Source: a virus
Lineage: Duplodnaviria > Heunggongvirae > Uroviricota > Caudoviricetes
Direction: 5' to 3' (one strand)
DNA length: 10,244 bases
Virus record (IMG/VR): IMGVR_UViG_3300012281_000038
Within the stretch, counting starts at the first letter, position 1; each line of letters begins with the position of its first letter. A model generated the notes under the pieces. That model worked only from the letters and a program-made list of their open reading frames with translations, had not been told where the DNA came from and did not search any database. The position numbers and the translations under genes are program-made. This document shows positions 1 through 7,700 of this stretch, piece after piece.

Positions 1-243
1 CCCTTGCAGTGCATATTCACCACGGAATCCGGGGGCGTACACCGCATGGCATTCAACAATGCTATGCCAGAAGTTACGCACTTCATGAACGCCAGCCAGC
101 ACCAATCCTTCGTAGATACCGAGATATACCGCATCAGGCTTGATGTAGTACGTGTGCCCCGGCTCAACAATATTTTCGGTATTGCCAGGCTCGTTGAGAA
201 AGGCCTGTAATCGCACAGGGTTATCAATAAATTTTAGTTCCAT
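1..243 (-). CDS. hypothetical protein, N-terminal 81 codons only (gene continues past the left edge of the window)
   Basis: ATG at 243-241 on the minus strand, then an open frame to position 1 (MELKFIDNPVRLQAFLNEPGNTENIVEPGHTYYIKPDAV...). It starts 17 nt after the stop of the 53-aa ORF. It is absent from the supplied ORF track because no stop lies inside the window. No family recognised. Confidence 0.45.
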   Translation of the reverse strand, partial: MELKFIDNPVRLQAFLNEPGNTENIVEPGHTYYIKPDAVYLGIYEGLVLAGVHEVRNFWHSIVECHAVYAPGFRGEYALQG

Positions 244-259
244 GCGATGCCATCCATTT

Positions 260-421
260 TCACATACAGCCTGCCAGCGCCTTATCTATTAACCCTCGTG
301 CAATTTCATGCAGAGTTGGCGCTACTCCAATTCCTGATTTTTTACGCTGCTCTTCCTGAATTTTCTTTATCGCTTCCATTTGCTTCTCACTTATCAATAC
401 CGGCTTTACTGAAATAGCCAT
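260..421 (-). CDS. small hypothetical protein (53 aa), possibly a small DNA-binding regulator (ribbon-helix-helix-like pattern is a guess)
   Basis: ATG 421-419 preceded by GGGGG four nt upstream; stop TGA 262-260. Translation MAISVKPVLISEKQMEAIKKIQEEQRKKSGIGVAPTLHEIARGLIDKALAGCM. Below the 60-aa cut-off of the ORF track. Sits directly behind a LexA-box-like operator and -10 element. Confidence 0.4.
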   Translation of the reverse strand: MAISVKPVLISEKQMEAIKKIQEEQRKKSGIGVAPTLHEIARGLIDKALAGCM

Positions 422-513: not shown

Positions 514-549
514 CACAAAAAAATGCCACCGCTCAGTAGCTGGTGGCAT
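514..549 (-). terminator. rho-independent terminator (minus-strand orientation)
   Basis: Perfect 8-bp stem ATGCCACC (523-530) / GGTGGCAT (542-549) with an 11-nt loop, followed on the minus strand by TTTTTTGTG (A-run 517-522 on plus). Lies downstream of the primase and ori region and upstream of the small LexA-box unit. Confidence 0.6.
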
Positions 550-742
550 CGTTCTGTGTGTCAGGTTTTGACAGGTTTTTTATGGACTCTAAAAACTATA
601 TTTATGGTGTCGCATTACTCTTCACGGCAGGCGCTTTTCAGTTCTGCCCTTGCTTCTGGCTCCATTGGTAATTTGATTCGCGATCAGCTATGCGGATGGT
701 TTGCTGAACAGGTATAACAACTTCTCAGGGGCTGTTTTCTGA

Positions 743-869: not shown

Positions 870-989
870 GTTGGTTCAAAATACCGTGCTGTTGGTTCAG
901 TGTTGGTTCAATAAAAAGAATAAAATCCTTATAAAACAATACTCTTTACAAATTGAACCAACTGAACCAACTGAACCAACTGAACCAAC
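870..989. repeat. iteron array, putative replication origin: 3 x GTTGGTTCA (870-878, 891-899, 902-910), an AT-rich spacer (911-953), then 4 perfect tandem copies of the reverse-complement 9-mer TGAACCAAC (954-989)
   Basis: Repeats read directly from the sequence. The array ends 25 nt before the stop codon of the primase-helicase gene (1015). Inverted iterons flanking an AT-rich core next to the replication gene is the usual architecture of satellite and plasmid origins. Confidence 0.55.
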
Positions 990-1014: not shown

Positions 1015-3727
1015 TCATTCTTCAGATGAGTTGTAATCTCCTGGCTGGTAATTGAGTACATAAACGTTTATTTGTCGTCCCTGAATACGTGGTGATTTTC
1101 TTTGGTATCCACGACCGCTGTTTGGTGGGGTTAGCATCCCGGCTTTTTTCAACACTTCAGCAAACTGTTTTGCGTTGAAACCACATGCGATCTCCTTTTC
1201 AAATGTGGCCGGGAATGTGTAGAAAATCATTGGGCTTTCGTCATGTTCTCCACGCTGACGGTATCCGGCTAAATCTTTGATGGGCAAATCTGCCGGGCTG
1301 TATGGAAATGGTGCAAAACGGCTAAGCCCATAGGCATTAAGAAATGCCTCCGTTTGTTCAATAATCTGCTGATGTTCTTTGTTACCTGTGCCGAACTCGC
1401 GCAACCATGCGTTATAGCTGTGCTGTATCGCATCACGGCATGTCTGAGCATCCCAGCCTGTTACAACCTCGCCTAACAGCAATGCGGCCTCCAGAATGGC
1501 AAATCGCGCGGCTACACGGTGAACCTGCTCACCATAATCGGATGGGATCAGACTTCTCCATCTGCTTTCGCAGTCACGAACAGTTTTAATTGCCTGTTGC
1601 TGGTGGTCTGCCAGCCATTTAATCCACTCACGCCCGGCTGCGCCGTGGTGATGCTGGTAAGCGTCTTTCAGTGCGTCTGCGTGCTGTTTTCCGTTCTGGT
1701 AATCGTGAAAGCGTACTGCTTTACTCAACGGAATATTCAGCAGTCGCACCAGTTGCCCGGCTTTGGTTTTTCGCCCGGAAGTAGCGATAAATGTTTCTAA
1801 ATCCATTTCTCCGGTGCTGATTGCCACTGTACGCCAGCGTTTTAGATCCCGGTTTCCACCATCTTTAGCGCCTTGCAGTTTCCCTACGCCGTTAAATAAC
1901 GCATAGGCAGACTGTGAAACACTGACAGGATCAGCGCCCTGACCAACTTCATCAAGCGGCATTAGTCCGTCATTGTGGGCGGCGGCTTCATTTGCCAGCC
2001 CCAGCGCGGTTCCGTACCACGTCAGCCGCAGTAAATCAGGGTTGCCGTATAAGCTGCTCGCCACGTTTGCCGTGGTGGTCTTACCTGCGCTCGACTGCTC
2101 ATAGAAATGAATGCCGAACCCGTCAGCGCCCACCAGCCTAATCAATGGCGCTGCCAGTGCTGCGCCGATCCCGGTCATCATTGAATAGTTACCAAAGGCC
2201 AGACGCGCCACGTTATCACGCCAGCTTTTCGCGCTCCCTGAGACGGTATATCCGGCTGCGGCTGAGCTTCTCCCGCTGAACAGCACAGGATTTTCAGGTG
2301 TTCCGATGATTTCCCCATCAGGCATGATGTACGCTCCGCATTGCCAGCCAGTGGCATGAGCAACACGCCACAATTCACGAGAGCCACTGCGTTGTAGCCA
2401 GTCTGCCAGTATTGCTCTGAGGCTGCTTTTGGTCGTGACATTTACCCCACCAGCTTTAAGTGTGCGCCATCCTTCACGTTCACCAATATCAGCCAGTGGA
2501 ATGGCAGCGGTTGTCGGCGTTTCAGAACCAAACGACAGCCAGCGAAGAATGAGATACTGGTCTTTATCGTCTCTGCCAGTACCGATAACGCTTAACGGAG
2601 AACATAACCAGCTTTCGTTATTGATGATTTCTCCACTCTGGCTGTCAGCTCTCGGAGATACCCAATAAATGCCATCCTCGCGGCTTTCTATTCTTGGTTT
2701 CAGTGGGTCGGTATCCATAACCTTAAAATCGCTTCCCTCAATGGTTTGTGGCTCCTGTTTCACGCCATTACCCTGTGGTTGGTACATTGACTTATTGAAC
2801 GCTTCTGTGGCGCATTTAATGCCGTGTTTTTGGTGGTAATCATTCCAGTCTGCTTTGTGATCTGTCGGGGGTAATGCCACCCATCCAGAAACAGATAAAG
2901 CTGCTTTTTCTGCTGCTATTCTCCCCGTGTTTTGTCTTCCTTCGCGGTGGTCGTTATCCGCAGCAATGATGATTTGTGCTGAAGGAAATTTATCCTGCAG
3001 TACCTGGGCGACATATAACAGGTTCCCGGCATCAATCGCCGCCACTGTCAGCGCCTCTGGACGCATTAAATGGGCAGATAATGCCGTTGCCAGCCCTTCT
3101 GCGATTAAGATGCTCTGTGTTGTTTCTGGTGNNNNNNNNNNCACCATGTGAGGTAATAGTCTGTGCTGCTGTTACTGCGCCGGATTTATCCACCAGCGCC
3201 AGCAACAGAGATCCATCGGGCAACACGGGGAATGTAAAATCACCTACCCCTTTCGCAACCAGATAATCAGATTTGCCGTTTACAGCCTTTCTGCGCATGT
3301 CATCAAACTGACGGGAAAACGTATCCCGTCTTTGTTGTTCGTCCTTCTCTTCCCTTTTCAGGCGCTCCTGTTCGCGTCGCTGGCGCTCGGTTTCCAGTTG
3401 TTCCCGTTTCTGGCTGGTGGCTTCTGGTGTTTCCGTTGTCCGGTAATCAATACCCAGAACATCAGCGGCAAGAAGCGCCGCCTCTGTTGTGTCGCAGTTA
3501 TTTACGCGTTTAATTAAATCCAGCCCATCACCAGCGCCGCACTGATTACAGATGAAGCTACCGCGCCCGTTGTCATCGAACCGGAATCGATCTTTGCCCC
3601 CACATGCAGGGCAGGGAGCATGACGGCGCGGAGAGTCAGGGACATTTATGTTCAGGCAGCCCAGCACATGAGGCCAGTTGTTTTCAGACGCACTGATAAC
3701 CTGACGGATAAGATCAATGTTTCGCAT
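1015..3727 (-). CDS. DNA primase-helicase: N-terminal zinc-ribbon, TOPRIM domain, C-terminal P-loop NTPase (D5/DUF5906-like); reading frame broken at the 10-N run 3132-3141
   Basis: Track ORFs 3032-3730 and 1015-3147 are two halves of one gene. The N-terminal half has CPACGG...CNQCG (zinc ribbon). The second half has the TOPRIM signature (IAEGLATALS ... IIIAADNDHREGRQ) and a Walker-A-like SSAGKTT. The likely start is ATG 3727-3725 (GTG at 3730 is the track start). The two halves are in different frames across the N run. Confidence 0.85.
3132..3141. other. run of 10 N (masked or unresolved bases) inside the primase gene
   Basis: Literal n characters. Flanking reading frames differ by one, so the true length is probably not 10, or the gene is frameshifted. 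Confidence 0.95.
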
Positions 3728-4085
3728 CACCGTACCCCACGTGGTCTATAGCGTTTGCGATATGGCTAACCAGCATCTGCCACTTGGTTATTCCGTAATC
3801 AGTCAGCATGCCATCATTGTTTAGCCACATATCAAATTCAGCGGTTGTCGCAAGTTTCCACTTATCGCCGTGGACAGTCCTCATTGCTGGGTACATGAAT
3901 GCGCAAATCAGATCACAAACATCTGACGGCTTCAGAGATGTAGTAATGGTGCGTCCCTCTGGCGTCTGAATTGCCATTTTCTCTTCACCAGTAGAATGAA
4001 GGTTATGAATCCACACAGCGCCAGCAATCTTTGCCACCTGCTCTCCGATTGCGGAGCTAAGCGCCATTTCTGCATTTTCACGCAT
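3714..4085 (-). CDS. hypothetical protein (123 aa)
   Basis: ATG 4085-4083 with GGGAGG five nt upstream; stop TGA 3716-3714, overlapping the primase start by 14 nt. No family recognised. Confidence 0.6.
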   Translation of the reverse strand: MRENAEMALSSAIGEQVAKIAGAVWIHNLHSTGEEKMAIQTPEGRTITTSLKPSDVCDLICAFMYPAMRTVHGDKWKLATTAEFDMWLNNDGMLTDYGITKWQMLVSHIANAIDHVGYGDAKH

Positions 4086-4346
4086 GAGAACCTCCCGCTA
4101 CAGTTGCGCCCATGTCATTAACCATGCTTTGCCATATCTCACGCCCGACGTCAGTCAATCCGTCCTTAGTGACGCAACGATCAAGAAGCTCTATCCCCAC
4201 GGTTTCCCACTGCGGGTAGAACACTTTCATGGCTGCCANNNNNNNNNNNNNNNNNNNNNNNNNNNNNNNNNNNNNNNNNNNNNNNNNNNNAGTGCCGACG
4301 CATACTTATTTGCCAGCGCATTCAGTCGGAAATTTTTAGTAATCAT
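4078..4346 (-). CDS. hypothetical small protein interrupted by a 52-N run (extent and frame uncertain)
   Basis: ATG 4346-4344 (MITKNFRLNALANKYASA...) with GGATGGAG upstream. Beyond the N run the open frame ...MKVFYPQWETVGIELLDRCVTKDGLTDVGREIWQSMVNDMGATVAGGSHA ends at TGA 4080-4078, overlapping the ATG of the 123-aa gene (ATGCGTGA). Frames on the two sides of the gap disagree if the N count is literal. Confidence 0.3.
4239..4290. other. run of 52 N (masked or unresolved bases)
   Basis: Literal n characters. Confidence 0.95.
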
Positions 4347-5432: not shown

Positions 5433-5623
5433 TTTTCACCCCCAAGAATTACCAGCTCTGCACGAGCATCGTTAACCAAAGATGAGCACGCTTTAATCGC
5501 ATCCACGACATCAGCAGCGTCCATTTCTTCAGCCGAAAGACTGACAGCAACCAAGACAGCCGCTGCTTGCTCGATTAATTGAAGTGCGGACGTAAGTCGA
5601 GGGGCATTAATTGAGTTATTCAT
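5429..5623 (-). CDS. hypothetical small protein (64 aa, MNNSINAPRLTSALQLIEQ...)
   Basis: Preferred start ATG 5623-5621 preceded by GGGGG, overlapping the stop of the upstream ORF (ATGAATAA). The longer track ORF starting at 5680 overlaps the upstream frame. Confidence 0.5.
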   Translation of the reverse strand: MNNSINAPRLTSALQLIEQAAAVLVAVSLSAEEMDAADVVDAIKACSSLVNDARAELVILGGEK

Positions 5624-6683
5624 TGGTTGCCCCCGTTTTTCCTGGCATTTCGCCACCTTCCAGCAGGAAATGAACGTCACGAACGGCGAGATCCAATATC
5701 GCGAGTAACGCCTTCAGTTTTTCGTCTCGTGAGGGAGAGTTGCTCACCAGAATGTCATTAATCACTTCTGTCAGTGTGATGATCTGGCTTGTGCGTTCGA
5801 GGGGATCCATATGCACATCGTAGGTTTTAATCATGTGCCACCTCCATGCGGATACGACCAGCAAAAAAGCAGACGTGATCGCGCACCAGAGAACGGCGAG
5901 CATCGCGTTCAGACTCGGCAGCAATATGATGAATTTTGGCGGTAATTGTCGGGCAATCGCGGCGAACTGCGGCGATAATCCAGATAAATTGCGGTTTTTG
6001 GGTAGGGGTAGTAGCCAGCATGTGGCAGCCTCCTTGTACTGGGAATTCTTCCCACCACCGGAGCTGCGAAACTCGCTGGTGGTGGACTGAACAGAGTTCG
6101 CAGTACCGGCGTACAAGGAAACCGGCCAGCCTTTCGGCTGCCCTGTCCAGCCCACCATAATTTTGCAAGCGACGCGGATTATAACCACATCACTGAAAAA
6201 AGTGTGAGTCTGGCTAACGGCACAAAAAAAGACGCTCGGCGCGTCATGTGTCGCCTCGTACATTTCCGGGCTGCGAAACCCGGCACCCGTTTTATGAGGT
6301 GCCTTATAACCATAAACCGTGTTGCCGCATAACGACAAGCTCTTTTTTATGGACTCCGAAAACTCACTATTGGAAGCACCAGATGCACAATACATCGCGC
6401 TCATTTCGTTAACGTCGCGCGTGTGGACGAAGGTTTTTGTGGAGCCACTACGCGAGCAGAGAAAGCCATCTACGACCAGAAATTCTCTGGCGCAGCCGCT
6501 GACCCTCTCAACGATAACACCATCGACCGTAATTTCTGACATAGTTAAGGCATCCGCTCCTACCACCAGCAAATGATAAACTTTGCTTGCATCTGCTGTA
6601 TTAATGCCTGATTTTGCTGTCATATTGCTGGATTTTTGCCACATACCAGCCAGTGAAAATATCTTCTTCTGGGCGGTTAGCAT
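5616..6683 (-). CDS. 355-aa open frame of doubtful integrity: good start signals, but the middle contains hairpins and T-runs and may be non-coding or a structured RNA; an internal start would give a 72-aa C-terminal product (5616-5834)
   Basis: ATG 6683-6681 with GGAGG seven nt upstream and the same ATGNNNTAA overlap with the preceding gene as elsewhere in the operon. The frame stays open for 355 codons. The central part is low-complexity and carries a terminator-like hairpin with T-run (6224-6245) and two hairpins sharing the 10-mer GCTGCGAAAC. An internal GGAGG + ATG (5834-5832) precedes a well-formed C-terminal segment MIKTYDVHMDPLERTSQ... Confidence 0.35.
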   Translation of the reverse strand: MLTAQKKIFSLAGMWQKSSNMTAKSGINTADASKVYHLLVVGADALTMSEITVDGVIVERVSGCAREFLVVDGFLCSRSGSTKTFVHTRDVNEMSAMYCASGASNSEFSESIKKSLSLCGNTVYGYKAPHKTGAGFRSPEMYEATHDAPSVFFCAVSQTHTFFSDVVIIRVACKIMVGWTGQPKGWPVSLYAGTANSVQSTTSEFRSSGGGKNSQYKEAATCWLLPLPKNRNLSGLSPQFAAIARQLPPKFIILLPSLNAMLAVLWCAITSAFLLVVSAWRWHMIKTYDVHMDPLERTSQIITLTEVINDILVSNSPSRDEKLKALLAILDLAVRDVHFLLEGGEMPGKTGATNE

Positions 6684-6859: not shown

Positions 6860-7700
6860 GGACCGCCTCCAGACGCTTAGCGAGCCAGCGTTGCGACAGG
6901 CGGGTGAGTTCTCCTTTGCGCTGCTCATATTCCATGCCCATATCAATTAACGTGATATTGGTGCTTTCGAGATATGAGAGGTGCTCAAGCTGTTCTGCGT
7001 TCATATGGTCGCGAGGTTCGCCAGAATAGCCATTTATCCGCGCCCACTGCTTAGCAGTTAGCCCACCAAGAACGATACGAGAAATCATATTGCTCTCGTT
7101 TGTGTAGTGGTGTTGCTGCGTCGTTTTACCCATCTCGGCACGGGCCATATTCAGCGCATCGCACATTGGCTTAAAGTTGTTTGCGGCACTGATACGGGCT
7201 TTTAGCTGGCGACGATAGCGGGCGGCGATTTCAGGCACGCTACGCTGTAATTCTTCCTCGCACTGGATGAAATAACGGCGGATAGCGCGACCCTGATCAT
7301 TGCGTTCGATCATTGCCAGTTCTTTCGCCATTCCGACACTTAACAGATAGTCTTTGCCGGGTCTGCCAGACTGCTTAATCTTGCTGTAAGCCGCGCCATT
7401 CGGGCTTTTCCCCAAATTTGGGGAAATTGTTTTATGGACTGAGTAATCGCGCCCAATGGTGAAGTCATACTCAGAGATGCGNNNNNNNNNNNNNNNNNNN
7501 NNNNNNNNNNNNNAGAAGTCTTTTCCCACGCCCAACGCTTTGTGTAACGCTTTTGCGCTAACAATATTGGTTTCACGCCCACCGATATGACCAGGAATAA
7601 CCGGGACAATTGCGGCAAATTCATTACCGTTAATTGTGCCCAGAAAGGCGTTCGGATGAGGGGCGGCCTCAGAAATTAATCTGCTTTTTTCGATGTTCAT
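6852..7700 (-). CDS. phage antirepressor-like protein (AntA N-terminal domain + KilA-C/ANT C-terminal domain)
   Basis: ATG 7700-7698 with GGAGA upstream. Motifs VSAKALHKALGVGKDF ... GRPGKDYLLSVGMAKELAMIERNDQGRAIRRYFIQCEEEL match the AntA/KilAC antirepressor pattern. A 32-N run (7482-7513) falls inside without disturbing the frame. Confidence 0.75.
   Translation of the reverse strand: MNIEKSRLISEAAPHPNAFLGTINGNEFAAIVPVIPGHIGGRETNIVSAKALHKALGVGKDFXXXXXXXXXXXRISEYDFTIGRDYSVHKTISPNLGKSPNGAAYSKIKQSGRPGKDYLLSVGMAKELAMIERNDQGRAIRRYFIQCEEELQRSVPEIAARYRRQLKARISAANNFKPMCDALNMARAEMGKTTQQHHYTNESNMISRIVLGGLTAKQWARINGYSGEPRDHMNAEQLEHLSYLESTNITLIDMGMEYEQRKGELTRLSQRWLAKRLEAVHV
7482..7513. other. run of 32 N (masked or unresolved bases) inside the antirepressor gene
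   Basis: Literal n characters. Confidence 0.95.

Follow-up and report, generated by a model that had tools for sequence, protein, structure and literature searches.

The 10,244-nt stretch of caudoviricete DNA IMGVR_UViG_3300012281_000038 from IMG/VR, referred to in its full length as the window, raises the question why one element of 22 bp occurs in it twice, in the same orientation and several kilobases apart. The window is 99% identical to an ~18-kb island located between yicC and dinD in Escherichia coli chromosomes, that of strain 214-4 (NZ_CP025840.1) among them; it is a P4-like integrative element of the satellite type with an unusual cargo of virion ejection-protein genes. All its genes are on the minus strand, which is also the functional strand of the repeat, and the repeat reads AGTTTTNNGAGTCCATAAAAAA on this strand. 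As set out below, the repeat is very likely a cis element derived from a small-terminase gene (terS), and its copies, termed C-units, probably serve as mimics of a phage packaging signal (pac) that would be recognised by the small terminase (TerS) of a helper phage for packaging of the satellite; the comparisons described here lead us to hold the latter function with moderate confidence. The copies and a partial match are the following:

576–597: repeat copy 1 (C-unit), plus-strand letters TTTTTTATGGACTCTAAAAACT, minus-strand reading AGTTTTTAGAGTCCATAAAAAA, non-coding
6343–6364: repeat copy 2 (C-unit), plus-strand letters TTTTTTATGGACTCCGAAAACT
6342..6365, minus strand: copy 2 as a 24-mer, GAGTTTTCGGAGTCCATAAAAAAG when read from 6365 to 6342, its length being taken from the comparison with sequences outside the window
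7429–7443, minus strand: partial third match, minus-strand reading CAGTCCATAAAAC, inside the antA coding frame (V-H-K)

Copies 1 and 2 share 20 of their 22 letters, have the same orientation and lie 5767 bp apart, which reproduces both the coordinates and the match count of the original prediction, a same-orientation duplication at a spacing of ~5.8 kb. The statement that such a match is unlikely by chance was likewise upheld, as none of 200 dinucleotide-preserving shuffles yielded two matches at ≤3 mismatches. Past the 22-mer, no convincing extension of homology between the copy-1 and copy-2 loci was found. A partial third copy beside a palindrome had also been reported, and these letters are indeed present, a perfect 20-bp palindrome (TTTCCCCAAATTTGGGGAAA, 7407–7426, within the antA coding sequence) adjoining the third match; as a true copy of the repeat, however, the third match is probably a coincidence, because it comprises only the 10-nt core AGKCCNTAAA, for which we estimate a chance expectation of ~0.08 per window.

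An exact-pattern scan detected the motif in more than 120 IMG/VR contigs. Inside a gene of ~146 amino acids (aa), in the frame ..P-E-F-x-E-S-I-K-K-G-K.., were 95 of 121 instances; 16 directly precede an isrK gene in elements resembling that of the window, three are of the copy-1 type, and the remainder are again instances in terS genes, mostly truncated by the ends of the loci. The ~146-aa gene codes for a terminase small subunit (phrog_309, E 2e-68), and its product is 100% identical to TerS of the P22-like E. coli phage CUS-3. Copy 2 matches the CUS-3-type terS segment coding for EFSESIKK at 24 of 24 positions, and copy 1 is identical over 22 of 22 positions to an "EFLESIKK" variant of the same gene type. 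In terS the counterpart of the C-unit is situated just after the part coding for the helix-turn-helix (HTH). A search by sequence retrieved no solved structure for CUS-3-type TerS.

Since the first scan had selected for the motif, a second sample of 80 terS loci was collected by peptide patterns only, and codons were threaded on the protein alignment of 53 non-redundant terS genes sharing <80% amino-acid identity. Third-codon positions hold ~0–0.3 bits (up to ~1 in two-fold codons) throughout the gene except in codons 48–53, the only block of constrained synonymous sites in the 53 genes. The codons concerned are TTT (87%), GAG (85%), a Ser/Ala codon that is always xCC (C in 100%), an Ile/Leu/Val codon that is NTA in 96% regardless of the amino acid, and AAA (75%). 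The core GAG[T/G]CCNTAAA is kept in phages of Acinetobacter, Riemerella, Vibrio, Lactococcus and Streptococcus; its synonymous sites are constrained in phages of Proteobacteria, Bacteroidota and Firmicutes. Judged from these alignments, the terS segment is constrained as DNA and not as protein. As far as the searchable literature shows, neither this constraint on GAGKCCNTAAA in phrog_309 terS nor the motif string has been described.

Several other causes of the constraint within terS were considered and rejected. An overlapping gene in the +1 frame, ending at the conserved TAA, would have an upstream open frame of merely 2–13 codons in about one third of the genes. A −1 frameshift at A_AAA_AAG is contradicted by the absence of the heptamer from many members and by a distance to the −1 stop that ranges from 0 to 47 codons, and a local RNA helix by the lack of a complementary partner within the gene. 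There is one core per terS locus, and repetition within the locus does not explain the constraint. A gene of Lactococcus phage 98104 (L403, 1731–2192) and its counterpart in ul36.k1t1, annotated as "activator of late transcription", code for small terminases of the phrog_309 type (E 4e-44). A role of TerS homologues as late-transcription activators, as implied by this "Alt" label, was discarded: the genuine Alt of TP901-1 is unrelated to the phrog_309 family (E 0.49), and the lactococcal label is therefore an annotation error.

In the satellites, the motif stands in non-coding DNA. Copy 1 is intergenic, behind the primase/iteron module and 27 nt ahead of an intrinsic terminator; it follows a stop codon, lacks a start codon and, in close relatives, occupies position +411 nt relative to the primase stop. 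Among 11 relatives, the 312 bp upstream of copy 2 change in a neutral-like manner in all six frames (synonymous to non-synonymous ratios between ~1:2.5 and 1:6), the open frame performing no better than the others, while neither the motif nor the isrK promoter varies in the same relatives. A coding gene upstream of copy 2 was rejected, as there was no match to DUF4222 or another Pfam family and no frame under purifying selection. Across lineages, the flanks upstream of copy 2 are unrelated and the 24-mer is retained; in locus L107, a motif of the copy-1 type likewise forms a conserved island between diverged flanks. Variation of the satellite motif is confined to NN, TCC/GCC and ATA/GTA, which are the positions that are free in terS genes. 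The non-coding nature of the satellite copies and their conservation as islands amid diverging or swapped flanks bear out the earlier view of a cis-acting site rather than a protein start. The plus-strand ATG with which the copies had been said to begin open reading frames (ORFs) does exist, but it is not a conserved start codon, since it is the complement of the ATA codon position, which varies as NTA in the homologues; the plus-strand small ORFs MDSKN and MDSEN were ruled out on this ground.

Full C-units occur in ~27 of 80 primase relatives, always on the strand of the primase. The motif search of related islands that had been suggested was carried out, and a scan of one genome per species located the arrangement of C-unit and isrK in Raoultella, Escherichia, Symbiopectobacterium, Scandinavium, Pluralibacter, Budvicia, Kluyvera, Atlantibacter and Enterobacter; it spans about ten genera of the Enterobacterales. 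Absence of the motif from related elements, which the original prediction had named as a refutation, is therefore not what is seen. An assembly labelled Chryseobacterium sp. (L612) contains an enterobacterial-type module of C-unit and isrK that differs very little from the Enterobacter and Kluyvera modules, which may reflect contamination or recent transfer. Two C-units in GAGGCC and GAGTCC forms lie 75 nt apart in L278 (at 4372 and 4447), and in L107 the C-units at 3526 and 9850 bracket a cassette comprising the gene of a 53-aa protein and the gp14, gp7, gp20 and gp16 homologues. Additional relaxed-core hits downstream of the primase in L240–L259 turned out to be coincidences in coding sequence. 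The pattern departs from that of att-type direct repeats: the window copies bracket the immunity and replication module, the L107 copies the ejection-protein cassette, and most relatives have a single copy.

In sister elements, the C-unit is often the last member of an array of 2–6 units spaced ~26–110 nt, the others resembling segments of different terminase genes. The unit types, and the example present in the window, are:

S-unit: consensus TTTCGNGACMAGTACGCG, in sister-element arrays upstream of the C-unit
T-unit: form G[AG]TTTT-N7-YCACTACGCGAG, inside ~163-aa small-terminase genes of Pfam GP3_package/phrog_606 (P22 gp3 family)
6405..6539, plus strand: terS fragment of the P22-gp3 family (GP3_package), 135 nt, translating to FVNVARVDEGFCGATTRAEKAIYDQKFSGAAADPLNDNTIDRNF*, inverted relative to the C-units
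6429–6456, plus strand: T-unit within this fragment, GAAGGTTTTTGTGGAGCCACTACGCGAG, homologue of the P22 pac position

One S-unit is identical at 23 of 23 positions to codons 55–62 (F-R-D-K-Y-A-K-A) of Sf6 gene 1, which is terS of that phage; the window itself contains no S-unit. In an hhalign comparison, EDFRDKYAKA of Sf6 falls exactly on PEFSESIKKG of CUS-3 (E 4.7e-6). Leavitt et al. (2013, Virology 440:117) are reported to have placed the recognition site of Sf6 TerS in that stretch of gene 1 which encodes the DNA-binding domain. As for the T-unit, unbiased relatives of the terS genes that contain it include contigs holding the exact P22 pac sequence, and within the window fragment the part 6429–6535 matches genes annotated "DNA-packaging protein" at 84–91% identity. 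According to the passages of PMC9611059 and PMC7672466 that refer to Wu, Sampson & Casjens (2002), P22 pac is a 22-bp asymmetric sequence, AGAGAAGATTTATCTGAAGTCG, inside gene 3. It covers the codons R-E-D-L-S-E-V-V of ..TWRTYRLREDLSEVVTR and coincides with the T-unit and, by pattern, also with the S- and C-units. At the pac position of the P22 family, synonymous sites are fixed as well: in nine non-redundant genes, GAA, xTC and CGA are found in 9/9 and ACG in 8/9. The codon alignment by pattern sets the C-unit on P22 pac, an equivalence that holds only within about one codon because the hhalign alignment of the CUS-3 class with the P22 gp3 class is weak (E 0.15). The satellites thus keep, outside genes, the segment of three terS classes that, by pattern, matches the mapped P22 pac. 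A fourth unit type, GAGTTTT-N5-CACGTTAG (E-F-x-x-T-L), occurs in tandem upstream of the C-unit in L618 (Budvicia) and L214 and may match a further terS class. The exact P22 pac was looked for in satellites and not found there, only variant T-units occurring in them. No satellite locus matched a 19-nt pattern of P2/P4-type cos, a result that is uninformative.

The genes of the satellites connect them with phages of the same kind. Satellite gp14 is 82–87% identical, and the satellite gp7 homologue ~59% identical, to the respective proteins of phages with CUS-3-type terS, and the Lederbergvirus vB_EcoP-720R6 combines a CUS-3-type terS (99%) with such a gp14 (84%); N7 and phiv205-1 are further phages of the CUS-3 type. 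In the fetched loci of primase relatives, clear gp14, gp7 and gp20 homologues are always accompanied by a C-unit, and none of the fetched loci lacking the motif has gp14/gp7/gp20 genes, the loci with these genes representing only two or three independent lineages.

Because the repeat copies the terS stretch at the probable counterpart of the P22 pac position, the satellite probably uses it for packaging by a helper, and we infer binding by TerS, cutting and helper-dependent transduction along the following lines. As far as gene content suggests, a P22-like helper with a CUS-3-type TerS would grow in the cell, and the satellite would excise by means of Int and AlpA, replicate from its primase/iteron module and form concatemers. 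By analogy with P22 and Sf6, the TerS ring of the helper would then recognise the C-units at 576–597 and 6343–6364 and recruit TerL, and following a cut nearby, headfuls of satellite DNA would enter helper capsids. The satellite would supply its own gp14 and ejection proteins, without a terminase of its own. The two direct copies and the inverted T-unit could make initiation likelier or broaden the helper range, and the inverted P22-gp3-family fragment at 6405–6539, as well as the Sf6-type units of sister elements, might extend the range of usable helpers. The original prediction had named the element-encoded AlpA, antirepressor and 143-aa protein as candidate binding partners; the helper's TerS is the likelier partner, since the repeat belongs to a set of terS-derived units and is identical to a segment of helper-phage terS.

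Copy 2 is located directly upstream of the immunity region, whose features are:

6303..6338, minus strand: predicted isrK/C4 promoter, −35 TTGTCG at 6338–6333, −10 TATGGT at 6314–6309, transcription start site (TSS) near 6302
6225..6302, minus strand: isrK-like small RNA gene with terminator (Rfam RF01394, 69 bits, E 1.9e-13)
6075..6162, minus strand: C4/CI-type antisense immunity RNA (Rfam RF01695, 81 bits, E 3.9e-15)

The promoter was deduced from the 5′ end of Rfam isrK and from the conservation of CTTG...TATGGTTATA across relatives; a simple consensus scan made no call at this place. With respect to the predicted TSS, the 3′ part of copy 2, AAAAAAGAG, occupies positions −46 to −38 and matches AAAAAARNR, the consensus that Estrem et al. 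(1999) are reported to have given for the proximal UP subsite. The A-tract at these positions is common to all promoter variants, including those without the rest of the motif, and its retention even there argues for a second, local role; the A-run of copy 2 is thus, on sequence grounds, additionally a UP-like A-tract of the isrK/C4 promoter. In many relatives (L210–L231 and others) a different conserved stretch, e.g. CACACCGCCAGCTATAAATTGCCGCACCGTGAC, replaces the C-unit ahead of the A-tract. At copy 1 there is no promoter, and the UP-element feature therefore cannot define the repeat as a whole. Of the earlier suggestion of a promoter element, regulator site or RNA motif, the promoter part consequently applies to the A-run of copy 2 and not to copy 1. 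A derivation of copy 1 from a deleted second isrK gene was considered and dropped, as only the 22-mer and a similar terminator tail are common to the two loci.

A number of observations weigh against the repeat as a packaging signal, or limit what can be drawn from the comparisons. The terS core of vB_EcoP-720R6 has a synonymous change, TCT, and the core rule is therefore strong but not absolute. Promoter function is sufficient to explain the 3′ third of copy 2, and in L278, L234 and L028 the A-run constitutes the U-tract of a terminator on the antisense strand. For CUS-3-type phages the motif is a candidate pac site only, and it was not found in the searchable literature. The Sf6-class relatives are too uniform for a constraint test (all ≥91% identity), and the alignment of CUS-3 TerS with P22 gp3 is not significant (hhalign, E value as above). 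The exact P22 pac 19-mer never occurs outside gene 3, all 113 loci with the 19-mer having it there. As many as 51 of the 80 primase relatives are without any of the three unit types, and the reshuffling of flanks at the motif fits a recombination scar too.

Two of the alternatives accept the derivation from terS and differ as to its use. It is unlikely that TerS binds the units for a purpose other than satellite packaging, the units acting either as a decoy that depresses packaging of the helper or as a sensor at −41 to −62 of the isrK/C4 promoter that changes immunity or replication transcription when the late genes of the helper are switched on. Such a role draws on the same sequence evidence as packaging does; the position of copy 2 is exactly that from which class I activators or repressors work, and multi-unit arrays would make an efficient sponge. 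However, neither copy 1 nor the copies in L278, L234, L028 and L107 are located at promoters, the ejection-protein genes make sense only if satellite DNA reaches helper capsids, and the sole apparent transcriptional lead, the lactococcal "Alt", is the mislabel mentioned above. We consider it quite unlikely that the units are recombination scars or crossover points, i.e. left-over terS stretches that are either kept as micro-homology for module shuffling or not selected at all. The decaying 135-nt terS fragment of the window would fit such an origin, as would the resemblance of the right flank of copy 1 to that of the differently placed L107 copy, the position of the two L107 copies on either side of the gp14-ejection cassette, and the wholly different copy-2 upstream flanks of different lineages. 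Scars would nevertheless be expected to decay together with their flanks, whereas the core is invariant next to DNA that changes in a neutral-like manner; moreover, one and the same segment alone has been kept from three terS classes, frequently in multiple copies with a single orientation, and its substitutions follow the constraint profile of terS.

The remaining alternatives do without packaging and without TerS binding. An ordinary promoter element, consisting of a UP element plus an upstream regulator site of the isrK/C4 promoter, with copy 1 as a dead duplicate, appears improbable. While AAAAAAGAG at −46 to −38 agrees with the UP subsite consensus, the A-tract is present in every variant and motif plus promoter are invariant among relatives, promoter variants lacking the GAGTTTTNNGAGTCC part are frequent, so that the promoter can do without it; a promoter is absent from copy 1 and from several other copies, and the identity with terS as well as the synonymous constraint would be left unexplained. 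A translational signal is highly improbable, whether through −1 slippage at A_AAA_AAG, through pausing at rare NTA codons or as a short coding start including MDSKN/MDSEN. A_AAA_AAG does stand in the slippery frame in CUS-3-type terS, where a −1 shift would stop after two codons, and NTA codons are rare in E. coli; yet the heptamer is not conserved in the family, the −1 stop is scattered over 0–47 codons, the invariant xCC is not accounted for, and for the satellite copies there is neither translation in a conserved frame nor a conserved plus-strand ATG.

As a packaging signal, the C-unit would resemble P22 pac in being a short asymmetric sequence inside a small-terminase gene, a few codons after a Trp of HTH-like context (...TWRTYRLREDLSEVVTR in P22, ...NKWKLDYPEFSESIKKG in CUS-3), and the P22-family terS fragment of the window includes the homologous stretch. 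It differs from P22 pac in its sequence, in the TerS family concerned (phrog_309 versus GP3_package) and in its occurrence outside terS, in a satellite. The likeness to the Sf6 site consists in the full identity of satellite S-units with Sf6 gene 1 codons 55–62. The region around copy 2 also recalls the C4-CI immunity region of P4/P1 type (seqA/seqC, a1/b1), in that the copy is directly upstream of an isrK and C4 module. It is distinct from that region, as the 22-mer lies upstream of the TSS and inspection of the C4 and isrK RNA sequences, no complementarity search being run, disclosed no complementarity to it; phage isrK-C4 modules lack the 22-mer, and homology with them begins only at the 5′ end of isrK.

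P4 carries a P2-type cos, SaPIbov5 and E. coli PICIs carry the cos of their helpers, and PLE an ICP1 pac. Mimicry of packaging signals by satellites is a known phenomenon (bioRxiv 10.1101/2024.04.22.590561; PMC9026076). The island shares with P4, cos-type SaPIs and PICIs, and PLE that a satellite without a complete terminase carries the packaging signal of a helper. It would be set apart from these systems by a headful pac-type site that is copied from inside the helper's terS and present in two copies, and by the combination of units of at least three TerS classes in the arrays of sister elements. A redirecting protein, i.e. a satellite TerS or Rpp, was not found in the element. On the comparisons made here, the new aspect with respect to known mimicry would be a headful pac-type signal that originates from within terS, is multiplied and, in sister elements, stands together with units from other TerS classes.

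Few pac sites of headful phages are known, and binding of TerS to pac is hard to show in vitro (PMC9611059). If the C-unit is a packaging signal, satellites that retain only the needed stretch of terS would reveal pac positions, provide a candidate pac core for a small-terminase family extending from the Enterobacterales to Bacteroidota and Firmicutes, and offer a testable rule for locating pac in other TerS classes. This would also explain how widespread P4-like islands without capsid and terminase genes move with P22-like helpers, and would bear on the prediction of transduction and on the design of packageable vectors. We put forward only tentatively the wider proposition that satellites of P22-like phages carry multi-specificity pac batteries, in which ~22-bp post-HTH units of several TerS classes (CUS-3, Sf6, P22-gp3 and perhaps a fourth) allow packaging by several unrelated helpers. 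Were it true, the pac core of HTH-type small terminases would be found at one conserved position of the gene, the phrog_309 pac core would be the phylum-spanning GAGKCCNTAAA, and pac sites would become predictable from sequence alone.

The island begins, in minus-strand order, with genes for a P4-type integrase, a 316-aa protein, AlpA, a 143-aa protein, an AntA-type antirepressor and a DUF4222 protein. These are followed by copy 2, the isrK small RNA, the C4/CI-type antisense RNA, small ORFs, the P4-alpha-like primase and the iterons, and finally by copy 1, the terminator, the 53-aa gene, the gp14/gp7/gp20/gp16 homologues and a PerC-family regulator. The annotation of the whole ~18-kb island contains no terminase, portal or coat genes. 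The gp16-like protein has a lytic transglycosylase domain. Further features of the window are:

1015..3730, minus strand: P4-alpha-like primase/helicase (TOPRIM + DUF927), its copy in the window broken by a masked N run
870..989: iterons GTTGGTTCA, three on the plus strand and four in tandem on the minus strand, in an inverted arrangement
519..548, minus strand: intrinsic terminator, which ends the primase operon downstream of copy 1
260–421, minus strand: 53-aa gene, the first gene of the P22-like gp14/gp7/gp20/gp16 cassette region
1–243, minus strand: start of the gp14-like (DUF2824) gene of the P22-like gp14/gp7/gp20/gp16 cassette

The iteron block downstream of the primase gene is presumably the replication origin. 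Masked N runs at 3132–3141, 4239–4290 and 7482–7513 fall into the primase gene, a small ORF and antA, respectively, and the ORF calls are broken there. In the immunity region, the C4 loop CCUUGUAC is complementary to GTACAAGG (6039–6032), which overlaps the Shine-Dalgarno sequence of a 64-aa Icd-like ORF (ATG at 6021); this pairing corresponds to the classic C4/icd arrangement. PGAP annotates a 355-aa "ash family protein" at 5616–6683 on the minus strand, of which aa 124–232, equivalent to nt 6314–5988, match Pfam Phage_ASH. Both the isrK and the C4 RNA gene, together with the first part of the Icd-like ORF, fall under this match, and the "Ash protein family" therefore seems to be made up of translated RNA genes.

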